From positions 1-28,174 of the IMG/VR virus record IMGVR_UViG_3300005512_000255: 28,174 bases of DNA. One strand, given 5' to 3'. This document shows, one piece after another, positions 12,783-28,174 of this stretch. Made by a program: the position numbers and the translations under genes. Numbering within the stretch: the stretch's first letter is position 1; the number at the start of each line of letters is the position of its first letter. The DNA comes from a virus. Taxonomy: Duplodnaviria > Caudoviricetes. Below the pieces are notes generated by a model, which ran no database searches, was not told the DNA's origin, and saw nothing but the letters and a program-made list of their open reading frames with translations.

Positions 12783-15206
12783 TTACCTTGGTTCAAATTG
12801 TTCTAAACCAAATCCGCCTAACGTATCAAATCCTGATGATTCAAAATCTTTTGGAGGCGTATTATTTTTTCTTTGTTCTATAAGCTCGGACTGTTGAGAA
12901 GCTTGGATTTTAGTCCTTTTATCTTTTCTGTCTTCACGGTACTTTTCTTTATCATTAATTACTCGTAAATCCATTTCTTTAAGCTTTACGTTTAGCTGAA
13001 ACTCATGCAACATAAGCTCTTTTTTAATTGCAGCTTCTCTTTCTAATTTTTGTATATCAAACTGAACTTGAGCTTGATTCATTTTAACTTTATTTTCAGT
13101 TAAAATAGTATTTTTTTGAATATCTACTGCTGCTGCTGCTTCAGCTGCTTTTGCGTTTGATTCAGATTGTAACTCTATATTCCTTGCTGATATAGCTTGA
13201 TCTTGTTCTAATTTTTTTCTTCTTCTTACTTTTAATAATTCATTAGCAAGCTTTAGATTTTTTACATTTCTAATATCAATTGCATCTTCTAAATTTATTT
13301 GATCTTTTTGTAATGATGCTTGTATATTATTTTCAAGAAGTTGTTTTTCTTCTTCATCAGGAGTTAGCTCTAAAAATATACCAAAATCATGAAGATGTAA
13401 CTCCGCTACTTCTTTTAAATTAGCTACATTAAATCTCCCTAATGAATTTATAAATGAATTGTTTGTATTTCCATATTCTAATACATCTGATATTCTTAAA
13501 GAAATAGCTTCTGCTGTTTTAAGAGTAAGGTATAATCCACCTTGTAAAACATGCCTTGTTGCTGTATTTGAATTTGCTGCTGCAATTTTTTGTAATCCCA
13601 CTAATGCATTTTTATCAGGTGCTGAGCCATCTCTTGCTTCATTTAAACCTGTTACATCCCGCATATTTTGTAAATAATAATTGTATGCAGTAATTAATGA
13701 ATTAATTTTTGCTCCTCCACTATTTGTTTGTAGCTCTTGTATTGGCACTCTTCCATTATTAAATTCACCATCTTGAGTCATTGATCTACCAATAACAGAA
13801 CCTGTTTGGAAATACATATTTAACGCTTCTTGTGGGTTGTAATTTGTTCCATTACCTAAATCTACTTCCGCTATACCATCTGCATCTAAAAATACACCGT
13901 CTGGAACCATTCTAGCTAATACTTGTTGTAGCTTTAAATGCGTTAATTGAATCATATCAGCAAATGTTGTCATTCTACTAACAAGCGATTCTAATCTCCC
14001 TTTATATACTCTAGGTGCTACAATATTATATGACATTTCAACTTTTGTAGTATCAGACTTAGGCCTTGTCATATTTTCAGCAAGCTTCCATTCTAATAAA
14101 TTTTGGCTGCCTATTATTTTTGCACCAGTATATAAAACTTCAATTGCTCTATTTACTTTTTCAAATCTAGCTCTTTGATCTGCAGGAGGATTAAAACTGT
14201 CATCTTTTTTAATTGCTTTTTTACCGCCTGATACAGTATCTTTAATTTTATAAATTTGATTTTTGTAAGTTTTATATTCAAAATATAATACATACACAAA
14301 TCCTTCATCATCGCCGTCTATTGCACCATATGATTTATTATATAATAAATGACCCGATCCTAATCCATTTTTTTCTATCGTAGCAATTTCGTCATCTGTA
14401 ATATTAGGATATTGTTTTTTAAGTTCAACAATGCTTATTTTTTTAATTTCACCCACATAATATAAATCATCAAAATATGGAGATTCTGTAAAAGAATAAA
14501 CAATATCAGCAGGATCAACATAATTAATTTTAATTCCTTCTGATTTATTAAAACCGTTTCTTACACAAGCCATTCCAATAACAGCTATATCGTAATCAAG
14601 TCTTTTCTTTATTAATTCATACTTGTTTTTGTCTAAAACATTATTAATAGCTTCTTCTTGAGCAATTTCAATACCTTGCTTATATTCCATTTGCATGTGA
14701 ACACCCAGTTCATTTTCATCCATTGGAAGCTTTGTAGGGTCTGTTTTAAAAGTATCAATACCTAAAGTACCTTTTATTTCTTCAATGTATTCTTTAGCCT
14801 GCATATCTCTTAAAATATTATCCATATAATCTGTTCTTTTCTTAACAGAAGACGGATCTTGAGAATATGCTTTTATATCATACATTCTTTCAGCAATACC
14901 ATTTACTACTATATCTACAAATTTTGGTATAATAGGTACAGGTTTCCAATCTAAATTTAAATAAGATAAATCACCATTTATAGATAATTCATCTTTATAT
15001 TTTTGTATTGACTGCTCTCCTCTTGCATAAAGTCTTAACCTATGAAAATTTTCTCTATTTGATTGATATCTTGATGTACCAGAATCTCTTTTAAACCATT
15101 CTGATTCAATAGCTATTCCAACTTTAGTTCCATACTCTAAACTTGCTTTTTCTGCGTCAGATACTGCTTGACTCGGAAATAATCCTGTTGGGTGTGTTTT
15201 TGCCAT
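12783..15206 (-). CDS. Portal protein
   Basis: 807 aa directly after terL. RLRLYARGEQS, DLSYLNLDWKPVPIIPKFVDIVVNG, RDVTGLNEARDGS and a coiled-coil C-terminal barrel. Confidence 0.88.
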   Translation of the reverse strand: MAKTHPTGLFPSQAVSDAEKASLEYGTKVGIAIESEWFKRDSGTSRYQSNRENFHRLRLYARGEQSIQKYKDELSINGDLSYLNLDWKPVPIIPKFVDIVVNGIAERMYDIKAYSQDPSSVKKRTDYMDNILRDMQAKEYIEEIKGTLGIDTFKTDPTKLPMDENELGVHMQMEYKQGIEIAQEEAINNVLDKNKYELIKKRLDYDIAVIGMACVRNGFNKSEGIKINYVDPADIVYSFTESPYFDDLYYVGEIKKISIVELKKQYPNITDDEIATIEKNGLGSGHLLYNKSYGAIDGDDEGFVYVLYFEYKTYKNQIYKIKDTVSGGKKAIKKDDSFNPPADQRARFEKVNRAIEVLYTGAKIIGSQNLLEWKLAENMTRPKSDTTKVEMSYNIVAPRVYKGRLESLVSRMTTFADMIQLTHLKLQQVLARMVPDGVFLDADGIAEVDLGNGTNYNPQEALNMYFQTGSVIGRSMTQDGEFNNGRVPIQELQTNSGGAKINSLITAYNYYLQNMRDVTGLNEARDGSAPDKNALVGLQKIAAANSNTATRHVLQGGLYLTLKTAEAISLRISDVLEYGNTNNSFINSLGRFNVANLKEVAELHLHDFGIFLELTPDEEEKQLLENNIQASLQKDQINLEDAIDIRNVKNLKLANELLKVRRRKKLEQDQAISARNIELQSESNAKAAEAAAAVDIQKNTILTENKVKMNQAQVQFDIQKLEREAAIKKELMLHEFQLNVKLKEMDLRVINDKEKYREDRKDKRTKIQASQQSELIEQRKNNTPPKDFESSGFDTLGGFGLEQFEPR

Positions 15207-17417
15207 TTACTTTAATATTTTGGATATTATTCCTTTATTATTATATTTTTTAAAACCAAATTCTAATTTTTTAGTTGTTCTTTGCCCTGTTGGCGCATAC
15301 ATATTTTTGTTGCAAGCCATTATTGCTAAACCTGAGCTAATAGCTGCATCATATTTTGTTCTTTTGTTTATATCAAAACCAGCCCAATCATTTAATGTTT
15401 TATTAAAATATAAATCACCATATGAACCATCTTCTTTTAATCCTACATATTTATCAATATATGATTCAATTGCAGCTGCATGTGCTTGTCTAATATCTTC
15501 AGATGAGTTTGGTATTCCACCTATCTCTCTTTCTGCTACAGATAATTTATTATAAAGTTTATCAGGTCTATTCATTGAATAACCTCTATACCCTCTTCTT
15601 TTTAAATAATATAGAAGTCTTGGTTTGTTGTTTTCTGCAAGAAGCGGCATGCCATAAAAAACTAATGACATCAAAACATCTTCAAAAAACATTTCTGCAG
15701 TTTGTGGTCTTGAAATGTATTCTAAAAAAAAGCTATTAGACGGCGCTTCGTCTAAACTAAATTTTGTTAATCCATGCAATGACCCCTTTGAACCTTTTCC
15801 GTCAGTTGTACCTGATATATCATAAGAGTCACATCCAAAAGCGCCTATATGCTCATTAGCAGGATATTTTAAACCATTTTTTAATATCATCCTATTCTGC
15901 ATATGCACAGGTGGGACCCAGGTTATATTAAATCTTCCATTATTATTTGGCAGAAACAATACTTTTGTATCTTTAACGCCGTGTTCCCATGAAAAATTAC
16001 CTCTAGCTATAAATTTATTTTGATTAATATCAGTATTATAATCTATTTGTTCGTATATTTTTTGTAAATTAAATATACTATTTTTTGTTTCATCCCTAAA
16101 TGCATGTTCTTCTGTACGTGGAAACTGTCTATAAAATTCATTTAAAGCATCTTGATCGTCTCTAAGACCATCTGCTTCATTTTCCCAGTGCTCTATAATT
16201 CCAATATCGATTGGATCCCCGTATGGCCCTTCAACTGGAGCTGCGGGTGTATCGAATACAGGTATTCCATAAGAATCAATGAATCCTTCGTAGTTCCATT
16301 CCATAGGTATGAACAAACTATATAATCCCGAACTAGTCTGTCCATTTCTGTTTCTTTTTGTAACGTCTGAGCCATTATATAATTTTTTAAAGTTATCTCC
16401 ACCTTTATCTAAGGTGTTTGAAGTAGATCCCATCATACATTTACCTATTATTCTACTTCCTAATCTCAGCGTTGTTTTTGTTACACGCCAGTTGTTTAAA
16501 ATATTATCTGGTCTTTCCCATTTACCAGACTCATCGTGTACTAATAATTTTAATTTCTCACCATCATACGAGTTATCACCTGTGTTTTTCCAATCTATTG
16601 TTGTATCGAGCCCTTCAAGCGCTTCTCTTTGATCGGTGCTGGTGATAGACTTCCTTGTGAGTTTGGACGCGGGTACTCTATATGCGAGTTCGGTTTTGGG
16701 TCTATCCATTCCGTCTTGTATTGGTTTGAAGAAGAATGGGTAGTGTACAGATATTGGGACGACCTTATCTGTAAACATCTTCTTTGCATCAGCACCAGTC
16801 TTTGATAATATTCCGAATCTAGCATCGGAACTGATAGTAGCTTGGTTAACTGTTTCTGCGGACGACATGAAACTAAATCCAGACCGTCTATTTTTGAGGT
16901 AGCATATTCCATAGCATCTTTTATCTGCCTTGCATGCCTCCCAGAATATGAAGAATAATCTGTTTGCTTCTCTAAACTCTGGTTGCCCAACATCAATTTT
17001 GGACCACTGCAGGTACATATAATGAGAGCCAGTAATATAAGTGCCACAACCTTTGTTGCGAAACCAAAAGCCTTCTTCGCGTCTGGTAAATTCTCTATCA
17101 ATGTATGCATGCCACTTTTCTTTAAATTCAGCTGGATACGCTTGCCAGTTGAATATGGTTTTAATGTTTCTTAATTCTTTTGGGTATTCTTCAGGTGTCC
17201 ACTTATCATATTTGCTATACACGTTTTCTTCAAGCGGCAAAGCAATCTTTAGATTTTGTATTTCATATATATCACCTATTTTACCTGATTTGCTAATAAC
17301 AACTACATCGTGTTCTGCATTATACCCATACTTCCAAGCTTTCTTTTTATTCAGTCTATGTATTGTTGTTCGCTTAATTGGTTCAACAATTTTATATAAA
17401 GTTTGTTGATAACTCAT
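15207..17417 (-). CDS. terL: Terminase large subunit
   Basis: 736 aa. Walker A-type LKNRRSGFS, Walker B LLVHDESGKW, coupling motif MMGSTSN, RQFPRTEEHAF, nuclease motifs FGCDSYD and YDAAISSGLA. Confidence 0.95.
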   Translation of the reverse strand: MSYQQTLYKIVEPIKRTTIHRLNKKKAWKYGYNAEHDVVVISKSGKIGDIYEIQNLKIALPLEENVYSKYDKWTPEEYPKELRNIKTIFNWQAYPAEFKEKWHAYIDREFTRREEGFWFRNKGCGTYITGSHYMYLQWSKIDVGQPEFREANRLFFIFWEACKADKRCYGICYLKNRRSGFSFMSSAETVNQATISSDARFGILSKTGADAKKMFTDKVVPISVHYPFFFKPIQDGMDRPKTELAYRVPASKLTRKSITSTDQREALEGLDTTIDWKNTGDNSYDGEKLKLLVHDESGKWERPDNILNNWRVTKTTLRLGSRIIGKCMMGSTSNTLDKGGDNFKKLYNGSDVTKRNRNGQTSSGLYSLFIPMEWNYEGFIDSYGIPVFDTPAAPVEGPYGDPIDIGIIEHWENEADGLRDDQDALNEFYRQFPRTEEHAFRDETKNSIFNLQKIYEQIDYNTDINQNKFIARGNFSWEHGVKDTKVLFLPNNNGRFNITWVPPVHMQNRMILKNGLKYPANEHIGAFGCDSYDISGTTDGKGSKGSLHGLTKFSLDEAPSNSFFLEYISRPQTAEMFFEDVLMSLVFYGMPLLAENNKPRLLYYLKRRGYRGYSMNRPDKLYNKLSVAEREIGGIPNSSEDIRQAHAAAIESYIDKYVGLKEDGSYGDLYFNKTLNDWAGFDINKRTKYDAAISSGLAIMACNKNMYAPTGQRTTKKLEFGFKKYNNKGIISKILK
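16193..16375 (-). CDS. Putative overprinted 60-aa protein in the +1 frame of terL
   Basis: ATG 16375 preceded by TTTAAAAAATTATATA. MAQTLQKETEMDRLVRDYIVCSYLWNG...ILEL, ending in TAG. GC about 41% over 16201-16380 versus about 31% over 16381-16560. Confidence 0.4.
   Translation of the reverse strand: MAQTLQKETEMDRLVRDYIVCSYLWNGTTKDSLILMEYLYSIHPQLQLKGHTGIQSILEL
16595..17110 (-). CDS. Putative overprinted 171-aa membrane-anchored or lipoprotein-like protein in the +1 frame of terL
   Basis: 171 stop-free codons. N-terminal KK..K followed by VVALILLALII-CTC. GC about 42% versus about 30% elsewhere in terL. Stop-avoiding CTC/GTC/ATC codons in the terL frame. Confidence 0.55.
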   Translation of the reverse strand: MHTLIENLPDAKKAFGFATKVVALILLALIICTCSGPKLMLGNQSLEKQTDYSSYSGRHARQIKDAMEYATSKIDGLDLVSCRPQKQLTKLLSVPMLDSEYYQRLVLMQRRCLQIRSSQYLYTTHSSSNQYKTEWIDPKPNSHIEYPRPNSQGSLSPAPIKEKRLKGSIQQ

Positions 17418-17689
17418 TATCTAGACCTTTTTTCTGCAAAACCACTAAAAGCTTCTTTCTTATCTTCTATTGGTTTATTATTTAACATAGCTTCTTCAGC
17501 TTGTATTCTATTTAATATTTCAAATGCATCAAATATAGCTAGCTTTTTTGTAGCCGCTGCATTTTTTAATCTATCAGCTGAAACGTCATCATCAGTCTCA
17601 ACTATAGGTTCTTTAGCAACTTTAACAAGTTCGTCAACTGCTCTATACCCAGCTTGGATTATACTCTGCTTCTTCTTTTTTATATCCAT
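17417..17689 (-). CDS. Putative terminase small subunit
   Basis: 90-aa helical protein (ADRLKNAAATKKLAIFDAFEILNRI) whose stop overlaps the terL start (TAATG). Function inferred from position. Confidence 0.5.
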   Translation of the reverse strand: MDIKKKKQSIIQAGYRAVDELVKVAKEPIVETDDDVSADRLKNAAATKKLAIFDAFEILNRIQAEEAMLNNKPIEDKKEAFSGFAEKRSR

Positions 17690-18230
17690 AATTAATAGAT
17701 ATTTCTTTTGTCATTATTCTATATAGCTTTTCATCGTTTATAATAAACTCATATTCACTATAAGGAGTAAATCCGATTTTTTGATTTAATTTAACAATAT
17801 TTGAATTATCTGTATATTTTACAATCCCTGTTAATGGTTTTTCTTTATCAGTAGAAAATTGATCTTGATTAAGCAATGGTTTTACAAAACAAAATCCTTC
17901 GCTTGCTTTCCAATCTTCTTTATACTTATATAAAAATATTTGATCAGGTTCGCAAAAATATAAATTATTTTTAAAATAGCTTTTGCTATTTCTTTCAATA
18001 CCCCTAACATCATGCCATCTTCTAAATATATTATGATGCACAATAATAGTATCCCCTTTCTTAATATTTGTATTACATATAATAGGTGTTTCGCAAACTA
18101 TAGCTTCTCTGCTTATAAATTTGTGATCAGATATATCCGTGTTTAAAATTAATTCTGTATCACCTATTTTTTTCTTATTATTGTATCTATTATTTTTGGG
18201 TTTTATTAAATACGTATATAAGGGTTTCAT
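17643..18230 (-). CDS. GroES-like co-chaperonin with two tandem GroES-like units
   Basis: 195 aa. Unit 1: MKPLYTYLIKP...LIL...AIVCETP...IKKGDTIIV. Unit 2: FCFVKP...GIVKY...VKLNQKIGF..YSEYEFIINDEKLYRIMTKEI. Confidence 0.55.
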   Translation of the reverse strand: MKPLYTYLIKPKNNRYNNKKKIGDTELILNTDISDHKFISREAIVCETPIICNTNIKKGDTIIVHHNIFRRWHDVRGIERNSKSYFKNNLYFCEPDQIFLYKYKEDWKASEGFCFVKPLLNQDQFSTDKEKPLTGIVKYTDNSNIVKLNQKIGFTPYSEYEFIINDEKLYRIMTKEISINYGYKKEEAEYNPSWV

Positions 18231-18451: not shown

Positions 18452-18686
18452 CTGCTTCTTCTATTTTTTTAATGCTACCATCGTTTACATCAATACTAAC
18501 ACCCCCATAAACTTCTTTAAGAGCTAACTGTAAAGTTTTTAATTCTGTTTTTGCAACATCATAAGATTGTAATACTTTGCTTTTTTCAATCTCTAATGCT
18601 CCTAATTTATATTGAAGATTATTTATATTAATAACTTTAGCTTGAAGGTCTTCAAGCTCTTCTTTTTTAATTTTATTTTTTGCCAT
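18426..18686 (-). CDS. Small coiled-coil hypothetical protein
   Basis: 86 aa with heptad pattern followed by YGGVSIDVNDGSI; A-rich start context. Confidence 0.7.
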   Translation of the reverse strand: MAKNKIKKEELEDLQAKVININNLQYKLGALEIEKSKVLQSYDVAKTELKTLQLALKEVYGGVSIDVNDGSIKKIEEADEQIDKKN

Positions 18687-18741: not shown

Positions 18742-18764
18742 ATGAATGGTTCAAATCCATTCAT
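18742..18764. repeat. Perfect 8-bp inverted repeat immediately after the fibre gene stop
   Basis: ATGAATGG-TTCAAAT-CCATTCAT. Confidence 0.55.
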
Positions 18765-24072: not shown

Positions 24073-25866
24073 TTAACTATGCACGTATGTACCACTTCCT
24101 GTAAATTTTATTATTGTATCACTACCTGATGTTGTAACGGTTGGTGAACCTGTTGTTGTACCGCTGTATGAACTTGTTGGCATTCTAAGTATTACTACCC
24201 CTGAGCCACCATTTCCACCTGCATAAAAACCTCCGTTATATGATGAAGCTCCTCCTCCTGCACCAGTATTAGCTGTAGCTGCAGAACCTGCATTTCCATT
24301 ACCTGATGCAGTTCCTCCGTTACCTCCTCCATATGCTCCAGTTCCAGCTGTCCCACTACCTCCAGCAAAGTTAGCGCCACCACCACCTCCACCTGCGTAA
24401 TTTACAGATGAGCCTGTGATAGATGAAGCTAAACCAGTACCACCATTACCAGCACCACTTGATGTTGCGTTTGAACCATTAGCAGTAGCACCTCCACCTC
24501 CTCCACCATGTTCAGTACCTGATGCTCCTGCACCACCATTATAACCTTGATTTACCATACCATATCTTGCGTCACCACCATAACTGTTTCCACCACCTGA
24601 ACCTCCGTTGTTTTCTACAACTTTACCTGATGCAACATAAGCAGAATCTTCAAAATATACACCACCACCTCCTCCAATACATTGAATTATCGGTGAATTA
24701 CTATATACAATTTTTGACTCATTTCCTCTTGTACCATTTTTTGTGCTTCCTGTTGTAGTCGTGTTTGTTGCTCCTGCACCTACTGTAATTGTATATGTAC
24801 CAGATTGTAAAGCAAATTTAGCTTCAACACCTGAATTACCACCTGTTGCAGTTGAACCATAAGATGTTCGACAGCCCCCTGCACCACCACCCCCTCCGTG
24901 CCCTGTTGCTCCTGAACCACCACCAGCTATAACAAGATAGTCAAAATATGTAGGTGTAATTCCATATGCAAATGAACCACTTGTATTAAATTTTAATACT
25001 GTATCTGTTCCGTCTGTAGTTACTGTTGTGCTACCTGTTGTAACAACGTGAGAATGGTTTTCAGTTGGGTATCTGAATATACATACTCCGTGACCACCAC
25101 GTCTACCTGCACCATCAGTAGCTTTTACACCACCTGCTCCACCACCTTTACCATCTGTACCGTCTTGATTTTTATCTCCACCACCGTCACCTACACCTGC
25201 AGAACTACTGTAATTATAACCTACACCATAACCACCATTACCACCTCCTGCATAACCAACACTAGAACCTGTTATTGACACGTGAACACCTGCACCACCT
25301 TGTACGTCGTTTCCAGGTGAAGCGCCAGCACCTCCCCCACCACCAGTTTTGTATGTTACTGGAAAGTTACCACCTTGACCTGATGTCATATAACCACCAG
25401 CATAACCTTGACCCGATGTACCAGCACCGGCATCTGATGAAGTTTGATCATATCCGGACCCACCACCACAACCACCGTCTAATCCAGGTGTTCCGGGGTT
25501 AGATGAGTGGGTTAATGATTCACCTTGACCACTTCCTCCTCCACCTAATACATTATAACTATTTGGGCCTGTAAAAGCTGATGATAAACCATTTAATCCT
25601 TGTGTGTATTTACCTTTATTTCTACCTCCACCAAAACCTACATTTATATTATATACATCATTTGGTTGTATTGTAATGTCAGTTTCTGCACTAGCACCAC
25701 CGCCTGATGTACTTCCGTATGATGTACGTAGACCACCAGCGCCTCCTCCACCTCCACCAGTTGGCCCTGATGATGAACCACCACCACCACCTACAATTAA
25801 CCACTCCATAGTAAACTGTGTAATTGTTTCAGCTAATAATCCAAAATTTATACCTTGTCCAAACAT
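24073..25866 (-). CDS. Glycine-rich fibre/spike protein with two tandem Gly-rich domains
   Basis: 597 aa. Two units starting EWLIVGGGGG...GGGAGGLRTSYG and DYLVIAGGG...GGGAGGCRTSYG, each ending GGxGVxIxR(Y/M)PT...TDT(V/I)(L/I)KF. Confidence 0.8.
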   Translation of the reverse strand: MFGQGINFGLLAETITQFTMEWLIVGGGGGSSSGPTGGGGGGAGGLRTSYGSTSGGGASAETDITIQPNDVYNINVGFGGGRNKGKYTQGLNGLSSAFTGPNSYNVLGGGGSGQGESLTHSSNPGTPGLDGGCGGGSGYDQTSSDAGAGTSGQGYAGGYMTSGQGGNFPVTYKTGGGGGAGASPGNDVQGGAGVHVSITGSSVGYAGGGNGGYGVGYNYSSSAGVGDGGGDKNQDGTDGKGGGAGGVKATDGAGRRGGHGVCIFRYPTENHSHVVTTGSTTVTTDGTDTVLKFNTSGSFAYGITPTYFDYLVIAGGGSGATGHGGGGGAGGCRTSYGSTATGGNSGVEAKFALQSGTYTITVGAGATNTTTTGSTKNGTRGNESKIVYSNSPIIQCIGGGGGVYFEDSAYVASGKVVENNGGSGGGNSYGGDARYGMVNQGYNGGAGASGTEHGGGGGGATANGSNATSSGAGNGGTGLASSITGSSVNYAGGGGGGANFAGGSGTAGTGAYGGGNGGTASGNGNAGSAATANTGAGGGASSYNGGFYAGGNGGSGVVILRMPTSSYSGTTTGSPTVTTSGSDTIIKFTGSGTYVHS

Positions 25867-27327: not shown

Positions 27328-28174
27328 TTAATTAAAAATTATTGAATCTGTTCCTGCTGTAAATGTTGTTATTTTATTATTACCAGATGTTGTCGTTGAA
27401 CTTGTCAATCCTCCTCCTACTGAAATGGTATATGTATTTGGATATACAATTACAATTATACCTGAACTTCCGTCTTGTGAGGCAGAACCACCTCCTATTC
27501 CGCCGTTTCCTGTATTAGCGGCTTGTGTAGATGTTGGATTTGGTCCCCCAGTTCCTGTTGTACCGCCTCCTGCGGCATATGTTACAGCAGATCCTGTAAT
27601 AGAAACTGATAAGCCTGACCCTGGAGTTGCATTACTACCAGCACTTCCAGCGCCACCACCACCACCACCAAAATTACCAGATTCACTACCATTTCCACCT
27701 TGATGGCCTTGACCTGTTGTACCTGCTGCTCCAATACCATCGCTTTCTTTACCACCACCACCAGATCCACCTGTATTTGGATCTATACTGTTAGCTCCTC
27801 CACCTCCGCCTCCTATAGAGGTTATAGTTGCGAAAACAGAATTTGATCCATTATTCCCTATTGCATTACCTCCTGACTTAGCAGGCCCCCCTGCTCCTAC
27901 TGTAACCGTGTAATTTGTTGCTGGAGATAAAGTTAATGCGCTTTCTGCAGTTGCTCCACCACCAGATACTCCACCATAAGAGGTACGGAGTCCGCCTGCT
28001 CCACCTCCTCCACCAGAAGCAGTACCTCCAACACAGGTTCCCCCACTACCGCCCCCAGCTACTACTAAATAATCTACATTTATTTGTGGAATAGCTATTG
28101 CTGATGTGCCCTCATTTGCGGCTGTTTTTACTTTCCATCCTTTTGTTGCATCTGTATATATTAAAATAACAGAA
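27328..28174 (-). CDS. Glycine-rich fibre protein, 5'-truncated by the window edge
   Basis: Not in the track (no start in the window). Open from 28173: SVILIYTDATKGWKV...VDYLVVAGGGSGG...GGGAGGLRTSYGG...YTVTVGAGG...SSGIIVIVYPN...FTAGTDSIIFN, stop TAA 27330-27328. Confidence 0.8.
   Translation of the reverse strand, partial: SVILIYTDATKGWKVKTAANEGTSAIAIPQINVDYLVVAGGGSGGTCVGGTASGGGGGAGGLRTSYGGVSGGGATAESALTLSPATNYTVTVGAGGPAKSGGNAIGNNGSNSVFATITSIGGGGGGANSIDPNTGGSGGGGKESDGIGAAGTTGQGHQGGNGSESGNFGGGGGGAGSAGSNATPGSGLSVSITGSAVTYAAGGGTTGTGGPNPTSTQAANTGNGGIGGGSASQDGSSGIIVIVYPNTYTISVGGGLTSSTTTSGNNKITTFTAGTDSIIFN

Follow-up and report, generated by a model that had tools for sequence, protein, structure and literature searches.

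A candidate lipoprotein gene overprinted on the terminase large subunit gene of an uncultured aquatic phage

The Rz1 protein of phage lambda is an unstructured lipoprotein encoded in the +1 frame, and odd lipoboxes occur among spanins (PMC6139136). The excerpt of that account available to us does not mention the terminase in connection with embedded o-spanins, and we found no report in the open-licence literature of a gene overprinted on a terminase. Here we describe an open reading frame, ORF1, that lies in the +1 frame of the terminase large subunit gene (terL) of an uncultured aquatic phage (IMG/VR record IMGVR_UViG_3300005512_000255). The entire 28-kb record, 28,174 nucleotides, was analyzed and is referred to as the window. 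The reading of ORF1 as an overprinted gene is strongly supported by comparison of terL genes, and its product is probably a lipoprotein.

The comparisons in this paragraph draw on excerpts of the cited papers. ORF1 resembles Rz1 and the embedded o-spanins in being a probable lipoprotein gene placed out of frame within another late phage gene and in having a mature part predicted to be unstructured (PMC6139136). Unlike Rz1, it is housed by a terminase gene rather than by an i-spanin gene and has no adjoining partner gene; its mature part is ∼90-185 residues long with a variable C-terminal end and no penta-proline stretch, and it has been lost in about half of the close relatives. By analogy, Rz1 is nevertheless the protein that ORF1 appears to work most like. 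The N-terminal lipoprotein signal is shared with u-spanins of the T1 gp11 type (PMC6139136), which also have a C-terminal transmembrane segment; no such segment was found in 40 ORF1 homologues, in which the highest hydropathy over 19 residues was 1.32. Like Llp of T5 and Cor, ORF1 would specify a small accessory phage lipoprotein that probably faces the periplasm, but Llp is folded and encoded beside the receptor-binding gene, whereas the ORF1 product is predicted to be disordered and is encoded inside terL (PMC9586334). The disruptin gp28 of phage phiKT is likewise cationic and membrane-associated and offers a route to outer-membrane disruption without spanins; it is, however, a 56-amino-acid amphipathic helix without an export signal, while in the 171-amino-acid ORF1 product an export leader precedes a long tail that is not amphipathic (10.1101/515445). 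With overprinted viral accessory proteins that arose de novo, ORF1 shares a restricted distribution, an accessory character and disorder-promoting residues (PMC8227390). The cases described in the excerpt come from small eukaryotic viruses, with neither terminase nor Rz1 mentioned, whereas ORF1 is a long overlap in the packaging ATPase of a double-stranded DNA phage, for which carriers and non-carriers can be compared side by side.

The +1 frame of terL

The features of the locus, all on the minus strand, are as follows.
15207..17417, minus strand: terL, terminase large subunit, 736 amino acids (PHROG 6681, E 4e-159)
16595..17110, minus strand: ORF1, overprinted on terL in the +1 frame, 171 amino acids from its ATG (terL codons 103-274)
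17051..17110, minus strand: ORF1 start ATG and n-region ending in Lys (residues 1-20), judged by the kept start codon and K/R at codon 122
17018..17050, minus strand: ORF1 h-region VVALILLALII, 11 residues, judged by hydropathy and third-position T
17009..17017, minus strand: Cys-Thr-Cys, the second Cys (residue 34) being the predicted lipidation site, judged by conservation in open genes
16946..17008, minus strand: most conserved mature segment, SGPKLMLGNQSLEKQTDY, without an acidic export signal
16598..16945, minus strand: hydrophilic, basic tail of variable length, predicted to be disordered (hydropathy, charge, AlphaFold)
16872..16895, minus strand: Walker-A-like motif KNRRSGFS of terL (codons 175-182), within the ORF1 overlap

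An original prediction, made from the letters of the window, had proposed a 171-codon frame inside terL at 16595-17110. These coordinates and the frame were confirmed, with the start ATG at 17110 and the stop codon ending at 16595, and the stop-free stretch around ORF1 extends over 191 codons from 17170. The guanine-plus-cytosine (GC) content, given in the original prediction as about 42% against about 30%, was 41.9% at 16621-17100 compared with 29.8% and 30.0% in two control stretches. The four CTC codons of terL all lie within ORF1 (0 outside), as do all seven of the rare codon pairs that had been quoted. In the proposed codon-shuffle check, a stop-free +1 stretch of 171 codons or more arose in 6 of 20,000 synonymous shuffles of the window terL, and one as long as the observed 191 or longer in none of 20,000. 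The overlap with the ATPase core is partial: ORF1 covers KNRRSGFS, which we take to be a Walker-A-like motif, but ends before LLVHDE (codons 291-296), presumably the Walker-B-like motif.

We examined a first set of 80 IMG/VR relatives and the window; removal of 4 duplicates and of 4 sequences not reaching codon 100 left 73 terL genes. The +1 frame contained no stop codon over codons 107-257 in 41 of the 73, while 0.002 such genes were expected from each gene's own codon usage. Within these 41 open genes, Leu, Ile and Val codons of the form NTA stood before a purine at 0 of 403 sites, as the definition of the open class demands, and before a pyrimidine at 250 of 411, which the definition does not dictate. 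Since a GC-rich patch would remove NTA codons from both contexts, the retention of the second kind disfavors such a patch. The T content of four-fold degenerate third positions was 84% in the leader, 21-23% in the tail and ∼43% outside, and in closed genes it was flat at 47-52%. Among 14 long versions of the frame, which run to codons 317-319, the shift in third-position T reaches codon 315. The codon shift thus tracks the ends of the frame and flips polarity between leader and tail, and the frame is intact in all five of the closest full relatives and in about half of the group; neither of the two findings that the original prediction had named as fatal to it, interruption in most close homologues and a GC island with boundaries off the frame, was observed.

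Loci from genome bins and three more scans enlarged the set to 287 non-redundant terL genes spanning the region. Group A, to which the window belongs (n = 188), comprised 102 genes open to codon 220, 83 closed genes with at least two stops and 3 with one stop. All 16 genes of group B were open to codon 218 or beyond, 13 of them to 257, compared with 0 of 78 in group C and 0 of 5 distant terL genes. A start codon (ATG, TTG or GTG) at terL codons 102-111 was present in 102 of 102 open group A genes, being ATG in 90, versus 33 of 83 closed ones. On a tree of the 73 genes built from the non-overlapping half of terL, open and closed genes were interleaved, with 11 changes, at least 6 of them forced, compared with 24 for shuffled labels. 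This interleaving indicates repeated loss or exchange, and ORF1 is apparently an accessory gene that has been lost repeatedly across lineages. The terL gene of locus L121 groups with A in its N-terminal half and with C in its C-terminal half, from which we conclude that recombination contributes to the pattern. A tree spanning groups A, B and C gave a long-branch warning and no reliable root. In two further loci (G016:C1:16602-18747 and L152) terL appears split over two frames or shortened, through either a sequencing error or a real break.

Using an ORF1 profile against 1.8 billion proteins, we obtained 146 matches. Of the 139 that were new, 137 lie in the +1 frame of terL and 2 are repeat-rich; 44 of the 137 are frame hybrids, probably assembly errors. 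No free-standing homologue outside the terL overlap was found in this search, as would be expected of a de novo gene, and searches of PHROGs and Pfam at E 0.1 and of Atlas gave no family match. ORF1 combines stop-specific selection beyond chance with a range narrower than that of its host gene. Together with the kept start codon, leader and Cys, the stop-specific avoidance makes it very likely that ORF1 is a real overprinted gene and, as we infer, a translated one. Of 22 listed RNA runs, 4 yielded contigs that cover the terL region piecewise (word shares 0.17-0.22), although strand, level and translation cannot be read from them. Two long +1 products of a more distant terL lineage (P0373, 178 amino acids; P0381, 151 amino acids) lack a hydrophobic leader and may represent a third open lineage.

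Leader, lipobox and mature part of the product

In group A the leader runs in this order: K/R, eleven apolar residues, then C-T-C-S-G. K/R is found at terL codon 122 in 79 of 102 open genes versus 18 of 83 closed genes, and the mean hydropathy of the h-region is 2.81 in open and 0.75 in closed genes. Open genes retain the second Cys in 95 of 102 cases and the preceding Thr in 97, against 25 and 30 of 83 closed genes, while among ORF1 homologues the first Cys is dispensable. A canonical lipobox has A, G or S at −1. The original prediction had described the lipobox as non-canonical, and for the window's group, with its Thr at −1, this description was accurate. Thr is the best lipobox residue within reach at this position, because Tyr135 of terL permits only Thr or Ile there and Thr is the smaller of the two.

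Group B lacks the group A leader (hydropathy −0.20 at the corresponding place) but has another at codons 107-120, ending in G-S-C. Its lipobox conforms to the PROSITE-type pattern in 15 of 16 genes, with the Cys at codon 120, 16 codons upstream of that of group A. This lipobox requires the rare codon TTC for Phe119, which is used in 15 of 16 genes against a background of 0.13. It also depends on Met-Cys or Met-Arg at positions 120-121 of the group B TerL proteins, residues altered in a way that permits it; those of group C mostly have Met-Asn, which creates a +1 stop. The carriers of the group B leader (terL codons 103-120) are L133, L147, L152, L167-L178 and L180. Two placements of a Cys-ended leader argue that the lipid anchor is the selected trait. 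Two origins, or one origin with a leader that moved, would both fit groups A and B.

Given its basic n-region, short h-region and conserved Cys, the ORF1 product is probably a lipoprotein, and its targeting to the envelope is supported by the same comparisons. The original prediction had proposed an envelope anchor in which a lipoprotein and a type II membrane anchor were equally possible. The former stands; the latter no longer ranks equal, given the 11-residue h-region after Lys, the selected Thr-Cys and the canonical lipobox of group B.

The mature part has a grand average of hydropathy of −0.89 and a net charge of +8. The AlphaFold model of ORF1, of low confidence, is mostly coil apart from the leader: the mean predicted local distance difference test score (pLDDT) is 46.7, one helix spans residues 8-34, and only this leader helix exceeds 70. 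The predicted 'helical middle' appears as a helix at residues 99-118, at low confidence only (pLDDT ∼44). Acidic residues are nearly absent after the Cys, and the signal for surface export of Bacteroidota lipoproteins is acidic in character. A periplasm-facing location is thus suggested. In Bacteroidota, surface export is governed by the residues that follow the Cys (10.1101/2023.03.17.533168, PMC11885536, both as excerpts). The Lol systems of Flavobacterium and Escherichia coli cannot stand in for each other (PMC11885536). The O-glycosylation motif of Bacteroidota was not enriched in the ORF1 products (0.02-0.17 per sequence).

Lysis genes of related phages and the role of ORF1

Lysis genes were surveyed in 28 longer records of related phages; lipoproteins were sought by crude pattern scans that considered ATG starts only and may miss genes. 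Holins (PHROG 3427) and endolysin candidates, of the M15 type or others, are present in open and closed genomes alike, and an N-anchored coiled-coil protein is frequent in both; one member of the coiled-coil family gave a weak match to an Rz-like spanin (E 0.01). In G001, a complete open genome, ORF1 is the only lipoprotein-like frame in the scan, a holin, an M15 endolysin and an N-anchored coiled-coil protein are also encoded, and the i-spanin-shaped gene lies ∼29 kb from ORF1. Closed genomes with a stand-alone lipoprotein beside the lysis genes are G009 and G011 (in both a protein of 145 amino acids with a similar tail composition), MW202828 and an Elemovirus record, and the closed relative G014 has a gene for a u-spanin-shaped protein beside its endolysin. 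At L374:4807-5313 a 169-amino-acid lipoprotein with a C-terminal membrane segment, a u-spanin topology without a family name, directly follows the M15 endolysin gene.

The stand-alone lipoproteins (G011 and G055 types, no family name) resemble ORF1 in having a lipobox and a basic, acid-poor tail rich in S, T, P, N and G, and they adjoin a lysis-module gene at 28 of 28 loci. Unlike ORF1 they have a conserved domain after the Cys; there is no sequence homology between the two, and they can occur together. Subfamily 1 was found on 28 contigs, 25 with terL, of which 23 were non-redundant and covered the overlap. None of the 23 has a full-length ORF1 frame, while two keep the leader, to codon 190. 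Its carriers do not cluster on the tree but are scattered among the open genes, with 12 changes of which at least 7 are forced. The notion that a phage has either ORF1 or a stand-alone lipoprotein, never both, holds for subfamily 1 but fails generally, owing to subfamily 2 (see below). Loci L365:11104-11538 and L480:1501-1887 represent an unannotated family of lysis-module lipoproteins with more than 230 homologues per query, in which a short conserved domain is combined with a stretch rich in Tyr and Trp and with a disordered, basic tail. A cassette recurs beside the endolysin gene (for instance at L088:9861-11781, L099:272-1977 and L399:1542-3458); it encodes a secreted protein of 340-430 amino acids without a family match, an N-anchored coiled-coil protein of ∼95 amino acids and a secreted thioredoxin-like protein.

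Our tentative reading is that ORF1 is a selected second frame encoding a lipid-anchored envelope protein, predicted to be disordered, that may serve as an optional helper in breaking the outer membrane at lysis. The sequence comparison shows selection in the +1 frame on stop codons, start codon, leader, Cys and hydrophilic tail alike. ORF1 would be translated by internal initiation from the late terS-terL-portal message, and its product would take the Sec route, receive a lipid at Cys34 and be processed by signal peptidase II; lacking an acidic export signal after the Cys, it would face the periplasm. In the least certain step, the long, basic, acid-poor tail might play the part that the flexible segment has in an o-spanin or in a stand-alone lysis-module lipoprotein, possibly with the N-anchored coiled-coil protein of the lysis module.

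Several observations weigh against this reading. The Cys is lost in 7 of 102 open group A genes, and the Thr at −1 is non-canonical, with a PROSITE-type lipobox in 1 of the 102, or in 98 if Thr is allowed. The C-terminal end ranges over 95 codons (terL codons 224-319), and conservation of the tail is poor; a defined interaction surface would be expected to vary less. ORF1 lies far from the lysis genes. Five near-complete closed genomes (G013, G021-G024) showed neither ORF1 nor a lipoprotein candidate in the pattern scans, and two of the five also lack the coiled-coil protein. In subfamily 2 of the stand-alone lipoproteins, 49 loci were found, the 31 longer ones were searched and 19 had terL. 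After exclusion of 4 missing the leader region, 2 duplicates and 3 weak matches to other proteins, the lipoprotein co-occurred with an open ORF1 in 8 of 10 contigs, or 9 of 11 with G055, several of the contigs being close kin and one lacking the Cys. Consequently, ORF1 and the stand-alone lipoprotein are not simple substitutes. Of the predicted spanin-like lysis protein, membership in the spanin family is not supported (no neighboring i-spanin gene, no C-terminal membrane segment, a variable C-terminal end, at least five near-complete relatives with neither protein); the looser role in lysis remains the best single guess, tentative as it is, with exclusion second and less likely. Separately, the complete genomes G022 and G023 (L403-L410) have candidates for holin and endolysin, but the scans showed none for a lipoprotein, a coiled-coil protein or an overprinted gene, and lysis by these phages may proceed without spanins.

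An unlikely but not negligible alternative is that the same lipoprotein serves exclusion or receptor masking, jamming an outer-membrane receptor against rival phages and sparing progeny from debris in the manner of T5 Llp. Small phage lipoproteins do block receptors from the periplasmic side (PMC9586334, as excerpted), the patchy presence and repeated loss of ORF1 would fit a host-specific accessory trait, and its co-occurrence with a lysis-module lipoprotein would fit a separate role. However, Llp differs in fold and gene position, as described above, the ORF1 tail is poorly conserved, and expression tied to a late packaging gene would come late for exclusion. We consider it improbable that the product is exported but unlipidated, as an uncleaved N-terminal type II inner-membrane anchor or a signal peptidase I substrate with disulphides at Cys-Thr-Cys and an i-spanin-like or lysis-timing role. 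The group A Thr outside the usual lipobox, the single modeled helix over residues 8-34 and the two Cys of most members would suit such a protein, but the apolar run after the conserved Lys is only 11 residues long, the canonical lipobox of group B comes without a long hydrophobic segment, the second Cys is retained whereas the first can be dispensed with, and no coiled coil is evident. Still less likely is a lipoprotein with another envelope role, such as stabilizing the envelope of the infected cell or delaying lysis during packaging; a transcript shared with terL would couple its amount to packaging and selection acts on composition rather than sequence, but ORF1 has no family match in Pfam, PHROGs or Atlas that would point to such a role. 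That ORF1 is no gene, its frame left open by accident through a GC-richer recombined patch, an RNA structure, a DNA site or chance, is very improbable and was rejected: terL halves do recombine (L121) and a slight excess of folding (mean z −1.07) is seen at codons 120-149, but the avoidance is limited to stop-making contexts, T is enriched in the leader and depleted in the tail, start codons and Cys are kept, group B has a leader of its own, the shuffles speak against chance and there is no Rfam match.

ORF2, the rest of the window and significance

Three further features of the window adjoin or overlap terL.
16193..16408, minus strand: ORF2, a second +1-frame stretch in terL, 71 codons, without a leader, kept open in groups A and B
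17417..18230, minus strand: a 90-amino-acid gene without a family match, taken as terS from its position, and a GroES-like gene, upstream of terL
12783..15206, minus strand: portal gene (PHROG 6547), downstream of terL

Within ORF2, codons 337-390 are open in 86 of 99 open group A genes (13.8 expected), 67 of 74 closed group A genes (12.0 expected) and 16 of 16 group B genes (2.2 expected), compared with 19 of 77 in group C (17.1 expected); this openness rests on about three informative sites. Synonymous sites are conserved at codons 361-390, and neither an Rfam match nor a folding signal was found. ORF2 may be a small gene or a nucleotide element. A bolder reading, which we regard as unlikely, is that two lineages independently made a lipoprotein from the same +1 frame of terL, altering TerL residues in each case so that the lipid anchor came to lie at different positions, that its tail disrupts the outer membrane by composition alone and replaces the stand-alone lysis lipoprotein, and that with ORF2 as a second gene terL would be a repeated nursery of genes.

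The genes of the window are late genes of a podophage-type virus; all lie on the minus strand, and one encodes a virion structural protein. Its terL product, which gave no useful match in a sequence search of the PDB, is 32-46% identical to those of the nearest isolates (Pachyviridae, Pervagoviridae and Elemovirus), phages of Flavobacteriaceae, and ∼14,000 stored stretches match the gene. Many closer relatives lie in Bacteroidota bins, others in unrelated bins to which they are probably misassigned. From these kin, the host is likely to belong to the Bacteroidota. In the excerpt available, the related isolate families are described without a gene like ORF1 (PMC8776804). Two related, glycine-rich putative tail fibre genes lie at 24073-25866 and 27328-28173, each followed by a similar gene of 121-128 amino acids, with a GC content of up to 49%. 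Two perfect hairpins occur in intergenic DNA at 18639-18658 and 18742-18764, with T runs on the plus strand. A scan for sigma-70-type promoters was uninformative (24 sites versus 16.1 ± 4.2 by chance).

Gene birth by overprinting is usually inferred from few cases, and ORF1 is a natural model of it on an essential gene. In hundreds of public terL sequences the second frame can be seen open, cut short, lengthened or interrupted, and its export signal sits at either of two places. This series lets the cost, the order of steps and the loss of an overprinted gene be measured. This predicted envelope gene escapes standard annotation in Bacteroidota-type podophages that form a very abundant group and in part lack a recognizable spanin, and the GC and codon anomaly in terL would be the footprint of the hidden gene.

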